From Escherichia coli (GTDB taxonomy: Bacteria; Pseudomonadota; Gammaproteobacteria; Enterobacterales; Enterobacteriaceae): a stretch of DNA of 64,000 nucleotides. A model generated the notes under the pieces. The model searched no databases and was not told where the DNA came from. It saw nothing but the letters and a program-made list of their open reading frames with translations. The stretch is from assembly GCF_048403405.1 (NCBI RefSeq), contig NZ_CP183129.1. One strand, 5' to 3'. Made by a program: the position numbers and the translations under genes. Shown here one piece after another: positions 22,399-34,091 of this stretch (its first letter is position 1; each line of letters begins with the position of its first letter).

Positions 22399-25850
<3,452 letters not shown>

Positions 25851-25917: not shown

Positions 25918-26517
25918 ATGCGTAAAGTTTGTGCAGCCATTTTGTCCGCAGCCATCTGTCTGTCCGTATCCGGTGCGCCTGCATGGGCATCTGAACATCA
26001 GTCCACGCTGAGCGCGGGGTATCTTCATGCCTCGACGAACGTTCCCGGCAGCGATGATCTTAACGGGATTAACGTGAAATACCGTTATGAGTTTACGGAC
26101 ACACTGGGGCTGGTGACGTCATTCAGCTATGCAGGAGACAAGAATCGCCAGCTTACCCGTTACAGCAATACCCGCTGGCATGAAGATTCCGTGCGTAACC
26201 GCTGGTTCAGCGTGATGGTGGGGCCGTCTGTGCGCGTGAATGAATGGTTCAGCGCGTATGCGATGGCGGGTATGGCTTACAGCCGTGTGTCGACCTTCTC
26301 CGGGGATTATCTCCGCGTAACTGACAACAAGGGGAAAACGCACGATGTGCTGACCGGAAGTGATGACGGTCGCCACAGCAACACGTCTCTGGCGTGGGGG
26401 GCTGGCGTGCAGTTTAACCCGACCGAATCCGTGGCCATTGACCTTGCTTATGAAGGTTCCGGCAGTGGTGACTGGCGCACTGACGGTTTCATCGTGGGTG
26501 TCGGTTATAAATTCTGA
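25918..26517 (+). CDS. lom: Lom/Ail-family outer membrane protein
   Basis: 199 aa; signal peptide; beta-barrel C-terminal ...GVGYKF; own terminator; classic position after J. Confidence 0.85.
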
Positions 26518-26572: not shown

Positions 26573-26581
26573 GGAGTGGAT

Positions 26582-28987
26582 ATGGCAGCAGTAAAAATCT
26601 CAGGTGTGCTGAAAGATGGTGCGGGAAAACCAATACAGAACTGCACTATTCAACTGAAGGCAAAGCGTAACAGCACCACGGTACTGGTGAACACGGTGGC
26701 CTCTGAAAATCCGGATGAAGCCGGGCGTTACAGCATGGATGTTGAGTATGGCCAGTACAGCGTTATCCTGCTTGTTGAAGGTTTTCCGCCTTCACATGCC
26801 GGAACCATTACCGTCTATGAAGGTTCCAGACCAGGTACGCTGAATGATTTTCTCGGTGCCATGACGGAAGATGATGTCATGCCGGAGGCATTGCGTCGTT
26901 TTGAGGAAATGGTGGAAGAAGCGGCACGCAACGCCGAAGCCGCCTCTCAGAGCGCAGCGGCGGCAAAGAAATCCGAAACTGCAGCGGCATCATCAAAGAA
27001 CGCGGCGAAAACCTCAGAAACGAATGCAGCTAATAGTGCACAGGCGGCAGCGACCTCAAAGACTGCATCGGCAAACTCCGCGACAGCAGCCAAAAAATCA
27101 GAAACCAACGCGAAAAATAGCGAGACAGCCGCAAAGACGAGCGAAACCAACGCAAAGTCCAGCCAGACGGCAGCGAAAACCAGCGAAACGAATGCCAAAG
27201 CCAGTGAAACTGCGGCAAAAAACAGCCAGGTTGCAGCAGCCCAAAGCGAGAGCGCGGCAGCCGGTTCTGCGACTTCAGCAGCTGGATCAGCAACTGCTGC
27301 GGCTAACAGCCAGAAAGCTGCGAAGACGAGTGAAACTAACGCAAAGTCCAGCCAGACGGCAGCGAAGACCAGCGAAACGAATGCCAAAGCCAGTGAAACT
27401 GCGGCGAAAAGCAGTCAGGATGCAGCGGCCCAAAGCGAGAGTGCCGCAGCCAGTTCTGCAAGCGCGGCGGCTGCTTCTGCCACTGCATCAGCTAACAGTC
27501 AAAAAGCAGCAAAAACCAGTGAAACCAACGCAAAGGCGAGCGAGACTGCGGCGGCGAACTCGGCGCAAGCATCGGCAGCAAGCCAGACAGCAGCTAAAGC
27601 AAGTGAAGACGCAGCCAGAGAGTATGCAAGCCAGGCAGCGGAGCCGTATAAACAAGTTTTGCAGCCGTTGCCCGATGTGTGGATACCGTTTAATGATTCA
27701 CTGGATATGATTACGGGCTTTTCGCCATCATATAAAAAAATTGTTATTGGCGACGATGAAATAACAATGCCTGGCGACAAGATTGTAAAGTTTAAACGCG
27801 CATCGAAAGCAACTTACATTAATAAATCTGGTGTGCTGACAGAGGCTGCCATTGACGAGCCACGATTTGAACGTGATGGCCTGCTTATTGAGGGGCAAAG
27901 AACTAACCTGCTAATCAATTCAACAAATCCGACTAAATGGAACAAGTCGTCAAATATGATCTTAAGTGCATCAGGTGTAGATGATTTCGGATTCCAGTAC
28001 GCAAAATTTACATTAAAACCAGAAATGGTAGGGCAAATTTCAGCGATTAACATAGTAACCGTTTCCGGCAGTAAAGGTTTTGATGTAACAGGCGGAGAAA
28101 AGTATGTAACCATATCATGCAGGGTGCAAAGTGGCACTCCAAATTTAAGATGCCGATTACGATTTGAAAACTATGATGGTTCTACCTACACATTCTTAGG
28201 TGACGCTTACTTAAATACGACAGATTTATCTATTGATAAGACGGGTGGTGCCGCTAATCGCATTACTGCAAGGGCTGTTAAAGATGAAGCAAGCAAATGG
28301 ATCTTTTTTGAGGCGACAATTAAGGCACTTGATACAGAAAATATGATAGGTGGAATGGTTCAGTATGCCCCGGCAAAAGGAGTGGGCACTGGCGCGGATG
28401 ATTATATTTATATTGCGACCCCTCAAGTTGAAGGTGGGGCGTGCGCTTCATCGTTTATTATAACAGGCGCATCCCCTGTAACACGCGCCAGCGATATTGT
28501 AACGGTCCCCATTTCTCTAAATTGGTGCAATCCCGCTATTAGTTCATTAGCAGAAGTTAATACCAATTGGGATGAATCGCCAAACAAAGAAGGTAGCGCA
28601 CGTATTCTTAATATTTCCACTACGGGAGATACAACTGAAATTGCAGATGAAAGTTATATGTATTTGGGGTATACATCTTTGGGAGCACGCGCAATCATTA
28701 CAAATGGTAAAGGCACTAAAATAGAATATAAAAGCGTTATAGAACGACCAGAGAGAAAAAGCATTATCGGCTTTAGATTCACAGAAAGTCGAGAATTGTG
28801 TGTTGTGGTTAACGGTAATATTGGTGCTAAGGTAGTTTCTCCTTATAAAAAACACAAATATACAGGAGGCTTCATTAATATTGGTGGTCAATCATCATCC
28901 GGCAACCGTCACCTATTTGGACACGTTCGAAATCTGCGTATTTGGCACAAGGCATTGACTGATGCTCAGATGGGGGAGTCAATCTAA
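26582..28987 (+). CDS. stf: side tail fibre protein Stf with a replaced, low-GC C-terminal receptor-binding module
   Basis: N-terminus MAAVKISGVLKDGAGKPIQNCTIQLKAKRNSTT... matches recalled lambda Stf; Ala/Ser/Thr-rich repeats; C-terminal ~440 aa of lower GC with a possible lectin-like motif. Confidence 0.85.
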   Translation: MAAVKISGVLKDGAGKPIQNCTIQLKAKRNSTTVLVNTVASENPDEAGRYSMDVEYGQYSVILLVEGFPPSHAGTITVYEGSRPGTLNDFLGAMTEDDVMPEALRRFEEMVEEAARNAEAASQSAAAAKKSETAAASSKNAAKTSETNAANSAQAAATSKTASANSATAAKKSETNAKNSETAAKTSETNAKSSQTAAKTSETNAKASETAAKNSQVAAAQSESAAAGSATSAAGSATAAANSQKAAKTSETNAKSSQTAAKTSETNAKASETAAKSSQDAAAQSESAAASSASAAAASATASANSQKAAKTSETNAKASETAAANSAQASAASQTAAKASEDAAREYASQAAEPYKQVLQPLPDVWIPFNDSLDMITGFSPSYKKIVIGDDEITMPGDKIVKFKRASKATYINKSGVLTEAAIDEPRFERDGLLIEGQRTNLLINSTNPTKWNKSSNMILSASGVDDFGFQYAKFTLKPEMVGQISAINIVTVSGSKGFDVTGGEKYVTISCRVQSGTPNLRCRLRFENYDGSTYTFLGDAYLNTTDLSIDKTGGAANRITARAVKDEASKWIFFEATIKALDTENMIGGMVQYAPAKGVGTGADDYIYIATPQVEGGACASSFIITGASPVTRASDIVTVPISLNWCNPAISSLAEVNTNWDESPNKEGSARILNISTTGDTTEIADESYMYLGYTSLGARAIITNGKGTKIEYKSVIERPERKSIIGFRFTESRELCVVVNGNIGAKVVSPYKKHKYTGGFINIGGQSSSGNRHLFGHVRNLRIWHKALTDAQMGESI
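27100..27560. repeat. about 2.4 tandem copies of a 189-bp (63-codon) in-frame repeat inside stf
   Basis: cgcaaagtccagccagacggcagcgaa(a/g)accagcgaaacgaatgccaaagccagtgaaactgcggc recurs at 27151 and 27340. Confidence 0.7.
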
Positions 28988-29268
28988 TGAAAGATTTAAC
29001 ACTCAAATTTGCCGACAGGGCCGACTTTTCGGCCTTTATGGGAAGTATTGGCTATTATAATGACGAGTCGATGCAGGATGATATTCTGATTGATGTGATA
29101 GGTAACGTGTACAAAGAAACCGGAGAGCTGACTGAAGATGGCGAACCGGTATGTGTTAAGGAAGATGGATATTTTGTAAACGTGCGCATCATTAAGGATA
29201 CGCAAATATCGTCATTATTCGATGAATACGTGGTTGCTGTTGAGCATCAACTTCGTGGCTGGATGTGA
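28987..29268 (+). CDS. ORF-A: small acidic protein (93 aa), function unknown
   Basis: ATG overlaps the stf stop (TAATG); about 19 Asp/Glu versus 8 Lys/Arg; no family recognised. Confidence 0.5.
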   Translation: MKDLTLKFADRADFSAFMGSIGYYNDESMQDDILIDVIGNVYKETGELTEDGEPVCVKEDGYFVNVRIIKDTQISSLFDEYVVAVEHQLRGWM

Positions 29269-29277
29269 GGAAGAAAA

Positions 29278-30318
29278 ATGGCTACATCGACAGTAATTCC
29301 TGATGACATCAAAACGCTAAAATCCGACGTTAGCAAATTAAAAAACGATCAAGGAAGCTACGCAACAAAATTATATGTAGACAGCAAAGATGAAATCGTT
29401 GGTGACTGGTCTGCTTCATGGTATCAGCAGGTATTGCCAACTAGCGGAGCTATATTTGGGAGAAAACTCCGCTCAACTCACAGGACGGCAGGTGTTGAGG
29501 ATGCGTATTGCGAACTATACCTCAAAAAATGGATAGACAGTCCAGGTAACGCAATGGCGCGCCTTAACCTGAACGATAACGGGACAAACATTTGCTGGGA
29601 CTTTACCAACCTTTATGGCGGTACGATGATTTTTCCCGGTGACAGCGGATACCTCAAAATGGGTAACTGCCTTATGTCATACAGCAAGCGTGGAAGTAAC
29701 GCGCTTATTAAATTTGATTACACCGACACATTACAGATCAAATATGCCAATCATGGGTCAACCATGACATTAAACACACAGGGAACCGCTTATGCTGGTG
29801 TTACTGCTCAATTGTGGGGCAACTCCAGCCGTCCTGTTGTTTATGAAGTCGGTGTTGATGGTGGCGCTTATATGTTCTATGCGCAAAAAAATACCGATAA
29901 CACCTATATGTTAAGCGTTAATGGTGCATGTCATGCCACCGCATTTAACCAGCATTCCGACCGGGATCTGAAAGACAACATTCAGGTGATCGATAATGCA
30001 ACCGACCGCATCCGTAAAATGAACGGCTATACATACACGCTTAAAGAAAACGGTATGCCCTATGCTGGTGTCATTGCACAGGAAGCTCTGGAAGCAATCC
30101 CAGAAGTTGTAGGTTCCGCAATGAAATATCAGGACGGCGCAAGCGGATCGGAAGGTGAAGAAGGTGAACGTTATTACACAGTAGATTATTCTGGTGTTAC
30201 TGGCTTGCTTGTTCAGGTAGCCAGAGAGTCAGACGACAGAATAACAGCACTGGAAGAAGAAAACGCAGAATTAAGACAAAGATTATCTGCAATTGAGGCG
30301 GCGCTTGCGTCTAAATAA
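29278..30318 (+). CDS. ORF-B: fibre/tailspike-like protein (346 aa) with C-terminal intramolecular-chaperone (peptidase S74-like) domain
   Basis: RBS GGAAG; C-terminal SDRDLKDNIQ...YTYTLKENGMPYAGVIAQEALEAIPEVV...coiled-coil ITALEEENAELRQRLSAIEAAL, the pattern of autoproteolytic fibre chaperone domains; hairpin aggggccgagcgcccc after the stop. Confidence 0.6.
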   Translation: MATSTVIPDDIKTLKSDVSKLKNDQGSYATKLYVDSKDEIVGDWSASWYQQVLPTSGAIFGRKLRSTHRTAGVEDAYCELYLKKWIDSPGNAMARLNLNDNGTNICWDFTNLYGGTMIFPGDSGYLKMGNCLMSYSKRGSNALIKFDYTDTLQIKYANHGSTMTLNTQGTAYAGVTAQLWGNSSRPVVYEVGVDGGAYMFYAQKNTDNTYMLSVNGACHATAFNQHSDRDLKDNIQVIDNATDRIRKMNGYTYTLKENGMPYAGVIAQEALEAIPEVVGSAMKYQDGASGSEGEEGERYYTVDYSGVTGLLVQVARESDDRITALEEENAELRQRLSAIEAALASK

Positions 30319-30360
30319 TATCAAGGGGCCGAGCGCCCCGTTTTATTGGGTAGGATGAAA

Positions 30361-30654
30361 ATGGATATAACACCTTTCCTTCATGCGCTTTGTGCTGTGG
30401 CTGCGCAGCTACTGGTTGGTCTTTTTACCGGGAACTGGGCTTACGGGGCGATAGCCGGTTGTACGTTCTTCATTGCGCGTGAACACACCCAGGCGGAATA
30501 TCGCTGGATTGAAATGTTTGGGCATGGCAAGAGGATTAACATGCCGTGGTGGGGCGGTTTTGATCCGCGCGTGTGGGATGTGGCAAGCCTGATGGATTTT
30601 GCTGTGCCGGTGGTGGCGTGTCTGCTGGTCTGGCTGTTGGTTAATCGTGGGTGA
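30361..30654 (+). CDS. ORF-C: small membrane protein (97 aa; 2-3 predicted transmembrane segments)
   Basis: Hydrophobic stretches ALCAVAAQLLVGLF, GAIAGCTFFIA, VPVVACLLVWLLV; AGGA 5 nt upstream of ATG; start could also be 30346 or 30355. Confidence 0.5.
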   Translation: MDITPFLHALCAVAAQLLVGLFTGNWAYGAIAGCTFFIAREHTQAEYRWIEMFGHGKRINMPWWGGFDPRVWDVASLMDFAVPVVACLLVWLLVNRG

Positions 30655-30664
30655 AAAAAGGTGA

Positions 30665-30784
30665 GCTGTATATGCAACGGAGGAAGAAACCCCGTTGCTG
30701 GAAGCCTGGAAAAAGTATCGGGTGTTGCTGAACCGTGTTGATACGTCAACTGCACAGGATATTGAATGGCCAGCACTGCCGTAG
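30665..30784 (+). pseudogene. tfa: 3-prime remnant of tail-fibre assembly gene tfa (last ~36 codons only)
   Basis: Frame opening right after the ORF-C stop reads [39 protein letters not shown], matching the recalled lambda Tfa C-terminus; no start codon or N-terminal domain. Confidence 0.7.
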
Positions 30785-30881
30785 GGTAAAACATATAAAT
30801 TCTATAATTAGATGTATCTTTCCATTTACGGCAAGGAAGGGGGCTTGGAAGACGTAAAGCATCTCACACCGAGATTATTTT

Positions 30882-31472
30882 TTATATGTCAGGTGTCTGA
30901 AGTTTTGCTTTGGCTCTTAAAATGGTTTGCCGCGAGGTTTTGAATTCCCGGGCAATGGCACTTATACTTACACCTGACTTAATTCGTTCGAATACCACCT
31001 GTTTCTGTTCTTCATTTAACACAGGTGGTCGACCAAAACGTTTCCCTGCGCCCCGGGCTCTTACTATCCCGGAATGAGTGCGTTCAAGTAAAAGGTCTCG
31101 TTCAAATTCAGCGACTGCTGAAATTACTTGCATCATCATTTTTCCTGTTGGACTGGTCAGGTCAATGCCCCCCAATGCTAAGCAATGCACTCTGATACCT
31201 GTTTCGGTCAGTTGTTCCACTGTTTTCCTGATATCCATTGCATTACAACCAAGGCGATCCAGTTTTGTCACAATCAATTGATCACCACATTTCAGGCGAG
31301 CAAGCAACCGGTTAAAACCAGGACGCTCACTGGTTGCTGCTGAGCCGCTAATGTGTTCTTCGATTATTTGCTGAGGTTTGATTTTAAAACCTGCACTTTC
31401 GATTTCCCGGCGTTGATTTTCGGTGGTCTGATCCAGCGTTGATATCCGACAGTAAGCAAAAATTCGAGACAT
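30882..31472 (-). CDS. pinQ: serine recombinase (invertase/resolvase family), PinQ/PinR-like
   Basis: 196 aa; catalytic-region motif YCRISTLDQ; C-terminal helix-turn-helix; same position as pinQ next to tfa and ydfK in K-12 Qin. Confidence 0.75.
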
Positions 31473-31788
31473 AGTGAGACTCTATACGAAATTGGTGTTC
31501 ATATCATAATGCATCTCAGAAAATAATTTTGATTATTTTTGTGCATGTTTGTATGTACACGTTCGAAAATAAACGAATGCGTATGCAACCCCGTAATTTT
31601 GGTGAGACCCAAAATCGATTTTGTGAAAAATGGCTTTAACTCGGTTTGTTTTTCGAGTTCCGGGCGGACTCAAGGAAGAAGAATAGTGTTGCGTGTTATT
31701 TTAACCAGATTTCAAGTTGTTTGGTCGTGGAAAAGTGGAGCAAAATGTTGTTAAAGTGGAAAAATGATAAAAAAGTAAGTTTATTATA

Positions 31789-32022
31789 TTACATTTTACC
31801 ATTTAAATTTTGGTTGTCTTTAAGAACTGATATCGCTGTTTGTAATAATTCTTTGTTATCCAGCCATGACTTTTTCTTTATGTTTCCTTCAATGTAATCA
31901 AGCAATGTTCTGGTATTGATAGGTCTTCCCTGTTTTGCCACTTCCACGACAGCATCTCCCAGGATAATTCTGACTTCAGGAAGCTGCGCAGGGAACCACT
32001 TTAGGGTGTCTTTTGATTTCAT
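31789..32022 (-). CDS. ydfK: YdfK/YnaE-family cold-shock-inducible prophage protein
   Basis: 77 aa from MKSKDTLKWFPAQLPEVRIILGDAVVEVAKQGRP...; AT-rich leader upstream (higher coordinates). Confidence 0.75.
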   Translation of the reverse strand: MKSKDTLKWFPAQLPEVRIILGDAVVEVAKQGRPINTRTLLDYIEGNIKKKSWLDNKELLQTAISVLKDNQNLNGKM

Positions 32023-32807
32023 GAATATATTCCTTAAAATATTATTGATTTTCATTGCGATATTGTATGTCTGATTCAGGATATGTTGACTTATACATCG
32101 GTTTTGTCTGGGTTATTGGATATGCCAATCCCTAATTTTATTAGAGCATGACTAAAAATGCTGAATATGATAAGGAGCGAAGTGATTATCAGTATGCTGT
32201 TCATATAGCCTCGAATTAGTAATGTGTTATATATGATATAGTTGACAATTTTTATCCTGGGTGTTCTTAAAGTTCGTAGATAAACATTGTCGTTTCAGGT
32301 ATACAGGAATGCTAACAGATGGCGGCAAAAATCAGGCGGTTTATGGCGCAAGCTGAAGTGGCAACTGCAAACTATCTTATGCAGAGACTCTACACGGATT
32401 GGGTTTAAAAGTATACATAGATAACAGTTTTTATCTGAAGAAGAAAAATATCAAGGTGATATAGCCTATATGCCTTTGATGCGGAGGAATGAATGTGATG
32501 GGAGTGATGTATCTGAATAGTTGAAAAACCGCAGACACGCCTTATGCAAGAACGTGCTGCGGTTGGCTGGTAAATTTTTCGATAGTGCGAGTATTGAATG
32601 ATTTCCAGCCGTTATTGATTTTACGCGTAACTCCATGAAAAAACTACTTATCTGTTGAGGAGTTTTTTTGGGGCATATATGGGACAGAAATAGGCCCCAG
32701 ATAGACACTGAGATCGAACTTAGGATGCTTTTTAAAAAATGCAACTATCTGAAAAAACCTAGAAAACGCCAAGGAAACCACAGGATGGGAAAAAACACCT
32801 GTGAATT

Positions 32808-34091
32808 ATGGATTTCCAGTTATATTCGCTCGGCGCAGCGTTAGTGTTTCATGAAATATTTTTTCCTGAATCATCAACGGCAATGGCGTTAATTCTGGCA
32901 ATGGGAACCTACGGTGCAGGTTATGTGGCGCGTATTGTCGGAGCATTTATTTTCGGCAAAATGGGCGACAGAATCGGGCGTAAAAAAGTACTCTTTATTA
33001 CCATCACCATGATGGGGATCTGTACCACCTTAATTGGTGTGTTACCGACCTATGCACAGATTGGTGTTTTTGCACCCATCTTGCTGGTGACGCTGCGTAT
33101 TATTCAGGGATTGGGTGCAGGTGCGGAAATTTCCGGTGCCGGTACGATGCTGGCGGAATATGCGCCAAAAGGTAAGCGCGGAATTATCTCCTCATTTGTG
33201 GCTATGGGGACTAACTGCGGAACCTTGAGCGCAACGGCAATCTGGGCCTTTATGTTCTTCATTCTCAGTAAAGAGGAACTGCTTGCGTGGGGATGGCGTA
33301 TACCGTTCCTGGCGAGCGTTGTCGTGATGGTCTTTGCTATCTGGTTGCGTATGAATCTGAAAGAAAGCCCGGTCTTTGAGAAGGTTAACGACAGCAACCA
33401 ACCGACAGCAAAACCTGCACCTGCTGGTAGCATGTTCCAGAGCAAATCCTTCTGGCTGGCAACAGGGCTGCGTTTTGGTCAGGCTGGTAACTCCGGTTTA
33501 ATTCAGACTTTCCTTGCAGGCTATTTAGTGCAGACGTTATTGTTTAACAAAGCAATTCCAACAGATGCATTGATGATCAGTTCGATTCTCGGCTTTATGA
33601 CCATTCCGTTCCTTGGTTGGTTATCCGATAAAATTGGTCGCCGGATCCCGTATATTATTATGAATACCTCTGCGATTGTGCTGGCGTGGCCAATGCTTTC
33701 TATCATCGTAGATAAAAGCTATGCCCCGAGCACCATTATGGTTGCACTGATTGTGATTCATAACTGTGCGGTGCTGGGATTATTTGCTCTGGAAAACATT
33801 ACCATGGCAGAAATGTTCGGCTGTAAAAACCGCTTTACCCGGATGGCTATTTCTAAAGAAATTGGTGGTCTTATCGCTTCCGGTTTTGGTCCTATCCTGG
33901 CGGGTATTTTCTGCACCATGACGGAATCCTGGTATCCGATCGCCATTATGATCATGGCATATTCAGTGATTGGTTTAATCTCTGCGCTGAAAATGCCAGA
34001 AGTGAAAGACCGTGATTTAAGTGCACTGGAAGATGCCGCGGAAGATCAACCGCGTGTTGTAACAGCTGCGCAACCTTCAAGAAGTCTGTAA
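32808..34091 (+). CDS. ydfJ: MFS metabolite transporter YdfJ, N-terminally truncated at the prophage junction
   Basis: 427-aa ORF; MFS motif GKMGDRIGRKK at residue ~50 means the first transmembrane helix is largely missing; AT-rich prophage DNA directly upstream. Confidence 0.8.
   Translation: MDFQLYSLGAALVFHEIFFPESSTAMALILAMGTYGAGYVARIVGAFIFGKMGDRIGRKKVLFITITMMGICTTLIGVLPTYAQIGVFAPILLVTLRIIQGLGAGAEISGAGTMLAEYAPKGKRGIISSFVAMGTNCGTLSATAIWAFMFFILSKEELLAWGWRIPFLASVVVMVFAIWLRMNLKESPVFEKVNDSNQPTAKPAPAGSMFQSKSFWLATGLRFGQAGNSGLIQTFLAGYLVQTLLFNKAIPTDALMISSILGFMTIPFLGWLSDKIGRRIPYIIMNTSAIVLAWPMLSIIVDKSYAPSTIMVALIVIHNCAVLGLFALENITMAEMFGCKNRFTRMAISKEIGGLIASGFGPILAGIFCTMTESWYPIAIMIMAYSVIGLISALKMPEVKDRDLSALEDAAEDQPRVVTAAQPSRSL

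Follow-up and report, generated by a model that had tools for sequence, protein, structure and literature searches.

In some siphoviruses of coliform hosts, such as those compared below, the lateral fibres can consist of one polypeptide or of two or more (Maffei et al., 2021; PMC8594841). The closest described case to the locus reported here is that of the T5-like phage IrisVonRoten (Bas32), in which bas32_0022, 0023, and 0024 encode a fibre of 796 amino acids (aa), a 92 aa protein, and a 574 aa fibre, respectively. AlphaFold-Multimer predicted that the distal fibre Gp24, whose C-terminus is an intramolecular chaperone, is attached to the proximal fibre Gp22; for Gp22 itself, a galectin-like domain at the C-terminus was predicted to serve as an additional receptor-binding domain (RBD) (Humolli et al., 2025; PMC11990801). 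Branched fibres had first been inferred genetically for LtfA and LtfB of the T5-like phage DT57C (Golomidova et al., 2016, PMC4728585; Ayala et al., 2023, PMC10713586). Here we describe a related locus in a lambdoid prophage of Escherichia coli (contig NZ_CP183129.1, assembly GCF_048403405.1), of which a window of 64,000 nucleotides was analysed. In this window the side tail fibre gene stf is followed by three open reading frames (ORFs), here called ORF-A, ORF-B, and ORF-C, and by a remnant of the fibre assembly gene tfa.

We consider it likely that the stretch from about 27,630 to 30,672 is an alternative side-tail-fibre module which many lambdoid phages have in place of the lambda-type Stf tip and Tfa, and that it serves host recognition rather than being a new defence system. 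Within it, the distal part of Stf, ORF-A, and ORF-B would form a lambdoid member of an already known arrangement, a branched lateral or side fibre whose proximal fibre is of lectin type. The locus shares its three-gene order, spacing, and overlap with the genes for Gp22, Gp23, and Gp24 of IrisVonRoten. Stf aa 133-803 and Gp22 share 44.6% identity (E 1e-179) through the shaft, the head, and the lectin-like end, and ORF-A is 38% identical to Gp23 (E 6e-24). ORF-B and Gp24 have in common an N-terminal motif (M-x-T-x-TVIP-x-DI-x-x-LK), read as MATSTVIPDDIKTLK in ORF-B (29278-29322) and as MVTKTVIPTDITKLK at the start of IrisVonRoten gp24, as well as a C-terminal S74 chaperone. The two loci differ in that the Stf anchor in the window is lambdoid (PF08400) and not T5-type. 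Moreover, ORF-B has 346 aa as opposed to the 574 aa of Gp24, and the Gp24 body, which is T-shaped and has two RBDs, shows no sequence relation to that of ORF-B. In IrisVonRoten, moreover, there is no counterpart of the ORF-C found in the window.

Three other systems can be compared with this locus. As in DT57C LtfA/LtfB, a proximal fibre would bear a second fibre, each with a receptor-binding region of its own, and S74 autocleavable chaperones are involved. However, both DT57C fibres end in S74 domains, the available parts of the two papers describe no ORF-A-type gene between them, and the ORF-B N-terminus gave no sequence match to DT57C at E <= 0.05. The classical lambdoid phage 21 (CPT_21_22/23/24) and a prophage of strain Nissle 1917 resemble the window in that a lectin-ended Stf is followed by homologues first of ORF-A (about 54% identity) and then of ORF-C (95%), but they do not have the second fibre, ORF-C begins 12 nucleotides (nt) after ORF-A, and sitABCD rather than pin lies downstream. 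This iron/manganese transporter operon adjoins ORF-C in phage 21 (locus L093, 4177-7273) and follows a 23-codon tfa remnant in Nissle 1917 (locus L006, 5397-8846). Finally, lambda and the K-12 cryptic prophage Qin share with the window the locus, the Stf N-terminal domain, the tfa 3' end, and the downstream pin. Unlike in these, distal Stf and 81% of tfa are replaced and an intact separate tfa gene is not present; in place of Tfa, ORF-A and the ORF-B intramolecular chaperone presumably serve assembly.

A first-pass annotation, made from the sequence without database searches, had described ORF-A as acidic, ORF-B as fibre-like with a C-terminal intramolecular chaperone domain, and ORF-C as a membrane protein. 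These descriptions hold, and all three ORFs (93, 346, and 97 aa) are real genes with full-length PHROG matches. ORF-A matches phrog_1361 end to end (E 1e-44) and has a pI of 4.19, with 19 Asp and Glu residues as opposed to 8 Lys and Arg. ORF-B matches phrog_4563 ("tail fiber protein") over 1-346 of its 346 residues (E 1e-220) and contains the Pfam domain Peptidase_S74 (PF13884) at aa 227-278 (E 1.5e-13). ORF-C residues 1-96 of 97 align to positions 6-101 of phrog_1443 (E 1e-58), and the protein has three hydrophobic helices.

The same annotation took these three genes to be a low-GC cassette that had overwritten about 80 percent of tfa. Relative to the flanking tail genes J (0.571) and lom (0.555), GC content is indeed lower in ORF-A (0.418) and ORF-B (0.445). 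However, the drop begins within stf near 27,600, between a proximal part at 0.546 and a distal part at 0.415, and ORF-C (0.539) and the tfa remnant (0.508) lie outside it; low GC is limited to the distal half of Stf, ORF-A, and ORF-B. DNA similarity to the lateral-fibre genes of unrelated virulent phages also starts within stf, at 27,628 for T1-like phages (Drexlerviridae) and at 27,662 for Nonagvirus ESCO3, and a stand-alone fibre gene of a Leclercia P1-like element aligns to Stf from aa 364 on. Because both the GC drop and the fibre homology start inside stf, the three genes are not the true unit of replacement. The foreign block runs from about 27,630 to 30,672 and comprises the distal 55% of stf, ORF-A, ORF-B, and ORF-C; the interval first singled out, 28987-30784, covers the right-hand two thirds of the module.

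What the module displaced is the lambda-type Stf tip and about 81% of tfa. Alignment to K-12 Qin, carried out as the first-pass annotation had proposed, placed the right boundary at 30,672/30,673, where Qin homology (98.5% identity) resumes. The tfa remnant (30665-30784, plus strand) holds the last 36-39 codons of a TfaQ-type gene and forms the right-hand module junction. Over the last 36 residues, identity to the C-terminal end of K-12 TfaQ, a protein of 191 aa by annotated coordinates, is 94%, and about 19% of Tfa is left. The loss of some 80 percent of tfa is borne out, with foreign DNA in its place and pin beside it as in Qin. The remnant had been placed directly after the ORF-C stop and in the same frame; its frame is uninterrupted, but it differs from that of ORF-C and starts 11 nt past the stop. 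In the near-identical strain TUM1226, RefSeq annotates the equivalent stretch as a tail fiber assembly pseudogene without its N-terminus. The ORF-C/remnant junction is found with like spacing in the phages Tritos and 2G7b and in TUM1226, and in truncated form in Nissle 1917, which argues that it is old and common to many phages and not an event of the present prophage.

The stf gene (26576-28987, plus strand) encodes 803 aa. Its proximal part (26576-27630) specifies the tail-attachment domain and a shaft of Ala/Ser/Thr-rich repeats; this is the conserved lambdoid part and lies outside the swap. Pfam phage_tail_N (PF08400) matches aa 5-134 (E 6e-67), and the proximal DNA is 95-96% identical to Tritos, 2G7b, and IdasGreatGrand. 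The shaft repeats (AAKTSETNAKSSQT; window 26900-27600, AT skew 0.5-0.6) cross-align among phages in shifted registers and are likely to be recombination substrates. The distal part (27631-28987, plus strand), the left end of the low-GC module, encodes an RcGTA head-spike-like domain and a lectin-type (LamG/galectin-like) end, RHLFGHVRNLRIWHKALTDAQ. The former was recognized by NCBIfam NF048003 (GTA_spike_fiber) at aa 437-638 (E 1.8e-16) and by a sequence search that matched the distal part to the head spike fibre of PDB 6tb9 (E 5.7e-5).

Further comparison revealed a second level of exchange. The Stf head (27907-28879) is unrelated at the DNA level to the heads of Tritos and 2G7b, whereas its flanks are 96-98% identical, and among IMG/VR relatives the heads range from 29 to 100% protein identity. 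The head behaves as an exchangeable receptor-binding domain whose swap is nested inside the module. Identity to Tritos resumes 108 nt ahead of the stf stop, and because of this the last 36 Stf codons and ORF-A are taken to be inherited together. Direct reading of 11 fibres that precede ORF-A homologues showed a conserved C-terminal motif, GGQ..TG.RHLFGH[IV]RN.RIWHK.L.D.Q, with the core GH[IV][RK][ND].R[IV]W.

ORF-B (29278-30318, plus strand; 346 aa) can be described as a short second fibre with a putative docking motif, a receptor-binding body, and the S74 intramolecular chaperone. A match to the long tail fibre distal subunit of PDB 6f45 was found at E 1.3e-3. S74 domains are cleaved at a Ser...Lys pair five residues apart, as in endosialidase S911/K916. 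ORF-B has SDRDLK at aa 227-232, with Ser227 (codon 29956-29958) and Lys232 intact; autocleavage at Ser227 would yield a mature fibre of about 226 residues. The N-terminal motif also heads the gene after ORF-A in phA11, tuinn, KarlBarth, VogelGryff, ESCO3, JenP1, and IdasGreatGrand, while the remainder of these proteins differs. Of the IMG/VR relatives, 36 extend for 2 kb or more beyond ORF-A; in these the next gene is ORF-B in 22 (followed by ORF-C in 20 and without it in 2), and in the other 14 it is a shorter fibre with the same N-terminus, followed by ORF-C. In phage 21 and similar phages nothing lies between ORF-A and ORF-C. These patterns suggest that ORF-B is an exchangeable second fibre.

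Names given to such genes in the databases deserve a comment. In VogelGryff (locus L096, 3767-4933) the "putative lateral tail fiber chaperone" is a 388 aa second fibre with the N-terminal motif TNIPKDITNLK, and the "Chaperone of endosialidase" label in Pfam is the probable source of its name. The names of ESCO3_80 ("endosialidase chaperone") and of a gene of JK16 are misleading in a like manner.

The module was found in isolated phages as well as in genomes. The lambdoid phage Tritos has the order stf-A-B-C-remnant-pinR, with identities of 95% for ORF-A, 99.7% for ORF-B (TRITO_21), 97% for ORF-C, and 100% for Pin. The order stf-A-B-C is also present in the isolated lambdoid phages 2G7b, HannyBb, and PhiR63_1, in some of them with pin after it. 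The first-pass annotation had held that virion roles for all three proteins in functional phages with this gene order would tell against a distinct system; of this, the shared order is what was found. The distal Stf, ORF-A, and ORF-B occur together in the strictly virulent phages Nonagvirus ESCO3, T5-like IrisVonRoten, and phA11. In ESCO3, ORF-A is 89% and ORF-B (ESCO3_80) 92% identical, and ORF-C is missing. Drexlerviridae, Dhillonvirus, and Seuratvirus also carry the module, but the body of their second fibre differs. Of 5426 complete E. coli genomes, 481 (about 9%) contain at least 80% of 28987-30784, and 511 contain ORF-B when this gene is counted by itself. Searches by phage name found no paper that discusses the module genes.

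ORF-A (28987-29268, plus strand) starts over the stf stop (TAATG) and encodes a 93 aa acidic protein with a predicted small alpha/beta fold (predicted local distance difference test score, pLDDT, 86.5). The structure search that had been recommended returned no informative neighbour for this model, a PDB sequence search gave chance-level matches only, and no family in PADLOC, NCBIfam, or Pfam matched. Homologues of ORF-A were found in 181 phage records, in each listed case just 3' of a lateral or side tail fibre gene, and in 17 of the 17 loci read the gene directly follows a lectin-type fibre gene, starting at or over the fibre stop. The phages belong to Drexlerviridae (tuinn, tunus, swan01), Dhillonvirus (KarlBarth), Queuovirinae (KurtStettler, VogelGryff, ESCO3), T5-like Demerecviridae (IrisVonRoten, phA11), and Vequintavirinae (JeffSchatz). 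Some IMG/VR loci seemed to have no ORF-A, but this proved to be a threshold artefact: locus L110, the one checked, holds a divergent ORF-A in a 285-nt gap, and the other apparently ORF-A-less loci that contain stf have a gap of similar size. The virion proteome of rV5 was considered as evidence on ORF-A and set aside as uninformative, since rV5 has the S74-ended gp41 at this place and no ORF-A gene.

Two observations separate ORF-A from the second fibre. It is retained in phage 21, Nissle 1917, and PhiR41_1, which have none. Moreover, a P1-like element of Leclercia adecarboxylata (loci L009/L010, 1892-6288; Gp16, R, LydB, and DarA nearby) carries gene R, then two tandem pairs of a lectin-type fibre and ORF-A, then an ORF-C homologue. 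In P1, the invertible S/U tail-fibre segment lies at the corresponding place. Because ORF-A is kept without a second fibre and is paired one-to-one with fibres in the Leclercia element, it is tied to the lectin-type fibre end and not to the second fibre. From this synteny we infer that ORF-A is probably a dedicated assembly partner, a chaperone or cap, of the lectin-type end and a functional substitute for Tfa.

In a less likely but live alternative, ORF-A would be a lasting structural part of the fibre, an adaptor between the tip of Stf and the second-fibre N-terminus. Such a role would account for the position of ORF-A between both fibre genes, with conserved short spacing, at every locus with a second fibre, and for the conserved N-terminal motif of second fibres, which must dock on something conserved; IrisVonRoten gp23 is also named "tail fiber protein" in GenBank. 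However, phage 21, Nissle, and PhiR41_1 retain ORF-A although they have no second fibre, and the gene that follows the fibre and ORF-A pairs of the Leclercia element is without the docking motif. The published model, in addition, joins Gp24 to Gp22 and makes no mention of Gp23.

Taken as a host-recognition module, the locus could work as follows. Recombination between the stf shaft and the tfa 3' end would have brought the module in. Stf keeps its lambdoid anchor and shaft and ends in a head of polysaccharide-binding type and a lectin-like domain; these assignments follow from homology, and binding would be their expected function. ORF-A, translationally coupled to stf, would assist the lectin-type fibre end in place of the lost Tfa. 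ORF-B would form a short trimeric second fibre which docks by its N-terminal motif on the Stf complex, with or without ORF-A, and its S74 chaperone would fold the trimer and then cut itself off at Ser227. The fibre would thus be branched and have two sites for receptor binding, an arrangement that has been proposed for IrisVonRoten Gp22/Gp24 and DT57C LtfA/LtfB. ORF-C does not belong to the fibre; it is a very conserved small inner-membrane protein, for which we suggest, with low confidence, a place of action in the cell envelope during infection or lysogeny. An early suggestion that the slot carries host-range determinants is supported. A purely structural role, which had been thought equally possible for all three genes, fits ORF-A and ORF-B, but ORF-C, the sole non-fibre gene of the module, is the sole remaining candidate for a non-structural one.

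ORF-C (30361-30654, plus strand) encodes a 97 aa three-helix membrane protein of the Ybl63/phrog_1443 family. It is separated from ORF-B by a terminator-like GC-rich hairpin, GGGGCCGAGCGCCCC then GTTTTATT (30325-30347, plus strand), a weak hit from a consensus scan. Since the six such sites found in the region do not exceed the 5.3 expected from shuffles, the hairpin is at most a possible terminator. The AlphaFold2 model of ORF-C has a pLDDT of 94.7, with helices at 5-24, 27-54, and 75-97. Foldseek against AFDB50 retrieved "Ybl63" (TM score 0.91) or uncharacterized members of the family, plus weak matches to unrelated small-membrane domains of unknown function. PADLOC, NCBIfam, and Pfam gave no match, a PDB sequence search gave chance-level hits only, and a literature search for the name Ybl63 found no paper. 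The family comprises 661 protein clusters, with 58-62% identity in Comamonas, Aeromonas, and Leclercia. Its loop REHTQAEYRWI..FG.GKR.NMPWWGGFD is invariant across the family, while the transmembrane parts vary.

ORF-C occurs in 1867 of 5426 complete E. coli genomes (34%). The median copy number is 2 and the highest is 7, and 57 copies are on plasmids. ORF-C ends the module in 34 of the 36 IMG/VR loci with enough downstream sequence, and in 72 loci centred on ORF-C nearly all with enough upstream sequence read stf-A-(second fibre)-C or stf-A-C. Other homologues follow a tailspike gene and precede int in P22-like JEP4 (locus L173, 3992-4291), follow a Tfa-type chaperone in Halomonas phiHAP-1 (L175, 4001-4306), P2/HP1-like fibres in Aeromonas prophages (L178/L179, 6001-6309), and gpJ in a Comamonas prophage. 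ORF-C is also directly 3' of receptor-binding genes in lambdoid, P1-like, and SSU5-like prophages and in podo-, myo-, and siphovirus genomes of several genera. It is missing from the virulent coliphages that have the same fibre module (ESCO3, IrisVonRoten, and the other virulent phages whose loci were read). ORF-C stays 93-98% constant while the adjoining receptor-binding domains span 29-100% identity. A role as a receptor-specific blocker or exclusion protein was rejected, as there is no co-variation between ORF-C and these domains.

The module lies in the tail region of the prophage, in the gene order gpJ (22411-25850), lom (25918-26517), stf, ORF-A, ORF-B, ORF-C, tfa remnant, pin, ydfK, a ynfT match, and a truncated ydfJ. 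The pinQ-type serine DNA invertase gene (30882-31472, minus strand) belongs to the flank outside the module, and its product is 99% identical to K-12 PinQ and 100% identical to Tritos PinR. The ynfT-matching stretch was not called as an ORF. Because window positions 30673-33000 are 98.5% identical in DNA to E. coli K-12 MG1655 (tfaQ 3' end, pinQ, ydfK, ynfT, ydfJ), the prophage is, on this alignment, related to Qin and integrated at the same chromosomal site, but much more complete. A frameshift near 25470-25475 divides gpJ: residues 1-1050 are encoded at 22456-25536 and residues 1030-1155 at 25458-25835, with an overlap at 25458-25536. The window reads KAFP|GTPV at this point, unlike its relatives. 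This looks like the loss of 1 nt in a run of C and could reflect a genuine defect or an error in sequencing.

Several points weigh against the module as a working host-recognition device with an envelope-acting accessory gene. With gpJ frameshifted, the fibres may be idle in the present prophage. No virion proteomics or genetics was found for the module proteins, and because of this the term "structural" rests on homology, synteny, and the published prediction for a relative that is 38-45% identical. Three further points concern ORF-C. A full-length homologue lies between the tailspike genes of an Ackermannviridae-like Salmonella contig (L180, 6001-6297), which also weakens the idea that ORF-C is confined to temperate phages, this contig being of virulent type. 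Another homologue, with 58% identity, lies outside any prophage on the Aeromonas rivipollensis chromosome (L008, 6001-6309), where it is flanked by genes for pirin and a RIO1 kinase; lipid A acyltransferase genes are close by, and the 12 kb contain no phage genes. Finally, a promoter scan found no promoter-like site directly upstream of ORF-C, and starts in the family often overlap the stop of the upstream late fibre or spike gene (ATGA coupling); for these two reasons expression of ORF-C in the lysogen is not indicated.

Superinfecting phages are excluded by T5 Llp, phi80/N15 Cor, and HK97 gp15, small proteins of the membrane or envelope whose genes adjoin those for receptor binding. ORF-C resembles these in being small, membrane-located, and encoded beside receptor-binding genes, but it does not co-vary with the neighbouring receptor-binding domain, and no sequence or fold relation to them was found, though no search aimed at them was made. 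With low confidence, we suggest that ORF-C acts in the host envelope independently of receptor type, in exclusion, entry, or surface-glycan display. A more specific proposal makes it an inner-membrane protein of lysogenic conversion or superinfection exclusion, which would obstruct either a stage that many incoming phages share or one that, whatever the serotype, is needed to display O-antigen or capsule. This is conceivable, though we would not expect it to prove right. The end of a receptor-binding module is the classical site of such genes, as in the tailspike-int gap of JEP4 and in P2/HP1-like prophages, and the proposal would agree with the confident membrane-protein model and invariant loop, with the near-constancy of ORF-C beside variable domains, with its frequency in E. 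coli prophages, and with its absence from virulent coliphages that share the fibre module. However, the homologues in an Ackermannviridae-like genome and at a non-prophage Aeromonas locus, the frequent coupling to late genes with no detected promoter of its own, and the literature search for Ybl63, which gave no paper, all count against it.

The gpJ frameshift near 25,470 and the position of the prophage at the cryptic Qin site would also agree with the locus being an inert remnant in a defective prophage, its three ORFs kept by recent descent and not by function in this strain. We regard this as doubtful. None of the three ORFs is interrupted, their identity to the ORFs of plaque-forming phages is 95-100%, and the frameshift lies in a C-run where it could be a sequencing error. 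Defective prophages can reportedly donate fibre modules via recombination.

The proposal of the first-pass annotation that the three genes are an anti-phage defence or superinfection-exclusion system, cargo in a recombination-prone slot beside receptor-binding genes with two of three genes lacking an annotated function, is very improbable and largely refuted, as PADLOC-DB 2.0, searched as had been advised, has zero families for ORF-A, ORF-B, or ORF-C at E <= 0.1, ORF-A and ORF-B belong to the lateral-fibre locus of strictly virulent phages, ORF-B has a full-length tail-fibre family match and an S74 chaperone domain, and the three genes are not a co-inherited system because their combinations differ (phage 21 and Nissle have stf-A-C but no ORF-B, ESCO3 has stf-A-B but no ORF-C, and A-B-C also occurs).

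As a host-recognition module, stf-A-B-C should be annotated as one host-range unit and not as cargo. Its boundaries, from the stf shaft to the tfa 3' end, mark where lambdoid phages swap receptor specificity, which could be of use in engineering lambda-based particles against O-antigen- or capsule-bearing E. coli. ORF-A, with its 181 phage records, and ORF-C, present in a third of complete E. coli genomes and often multicopy, are two very common small families. ORF-C could reveal how phages handle the cell envelope around their receptor-binding proteins. Speculatively, and at no better than a long shot, ORF-C may represent a new class of phage accessory protein acting on a receptor-independent envelope step (glycan export or display, or genome entry), and ORF-A a widespread fibre assembly family unrelated to Tfa, gp38, and gp57A. 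If this is true, ORF-C would protect lysogens or progeny and would be exchanged together with the receptor-binding genes of every tail type.

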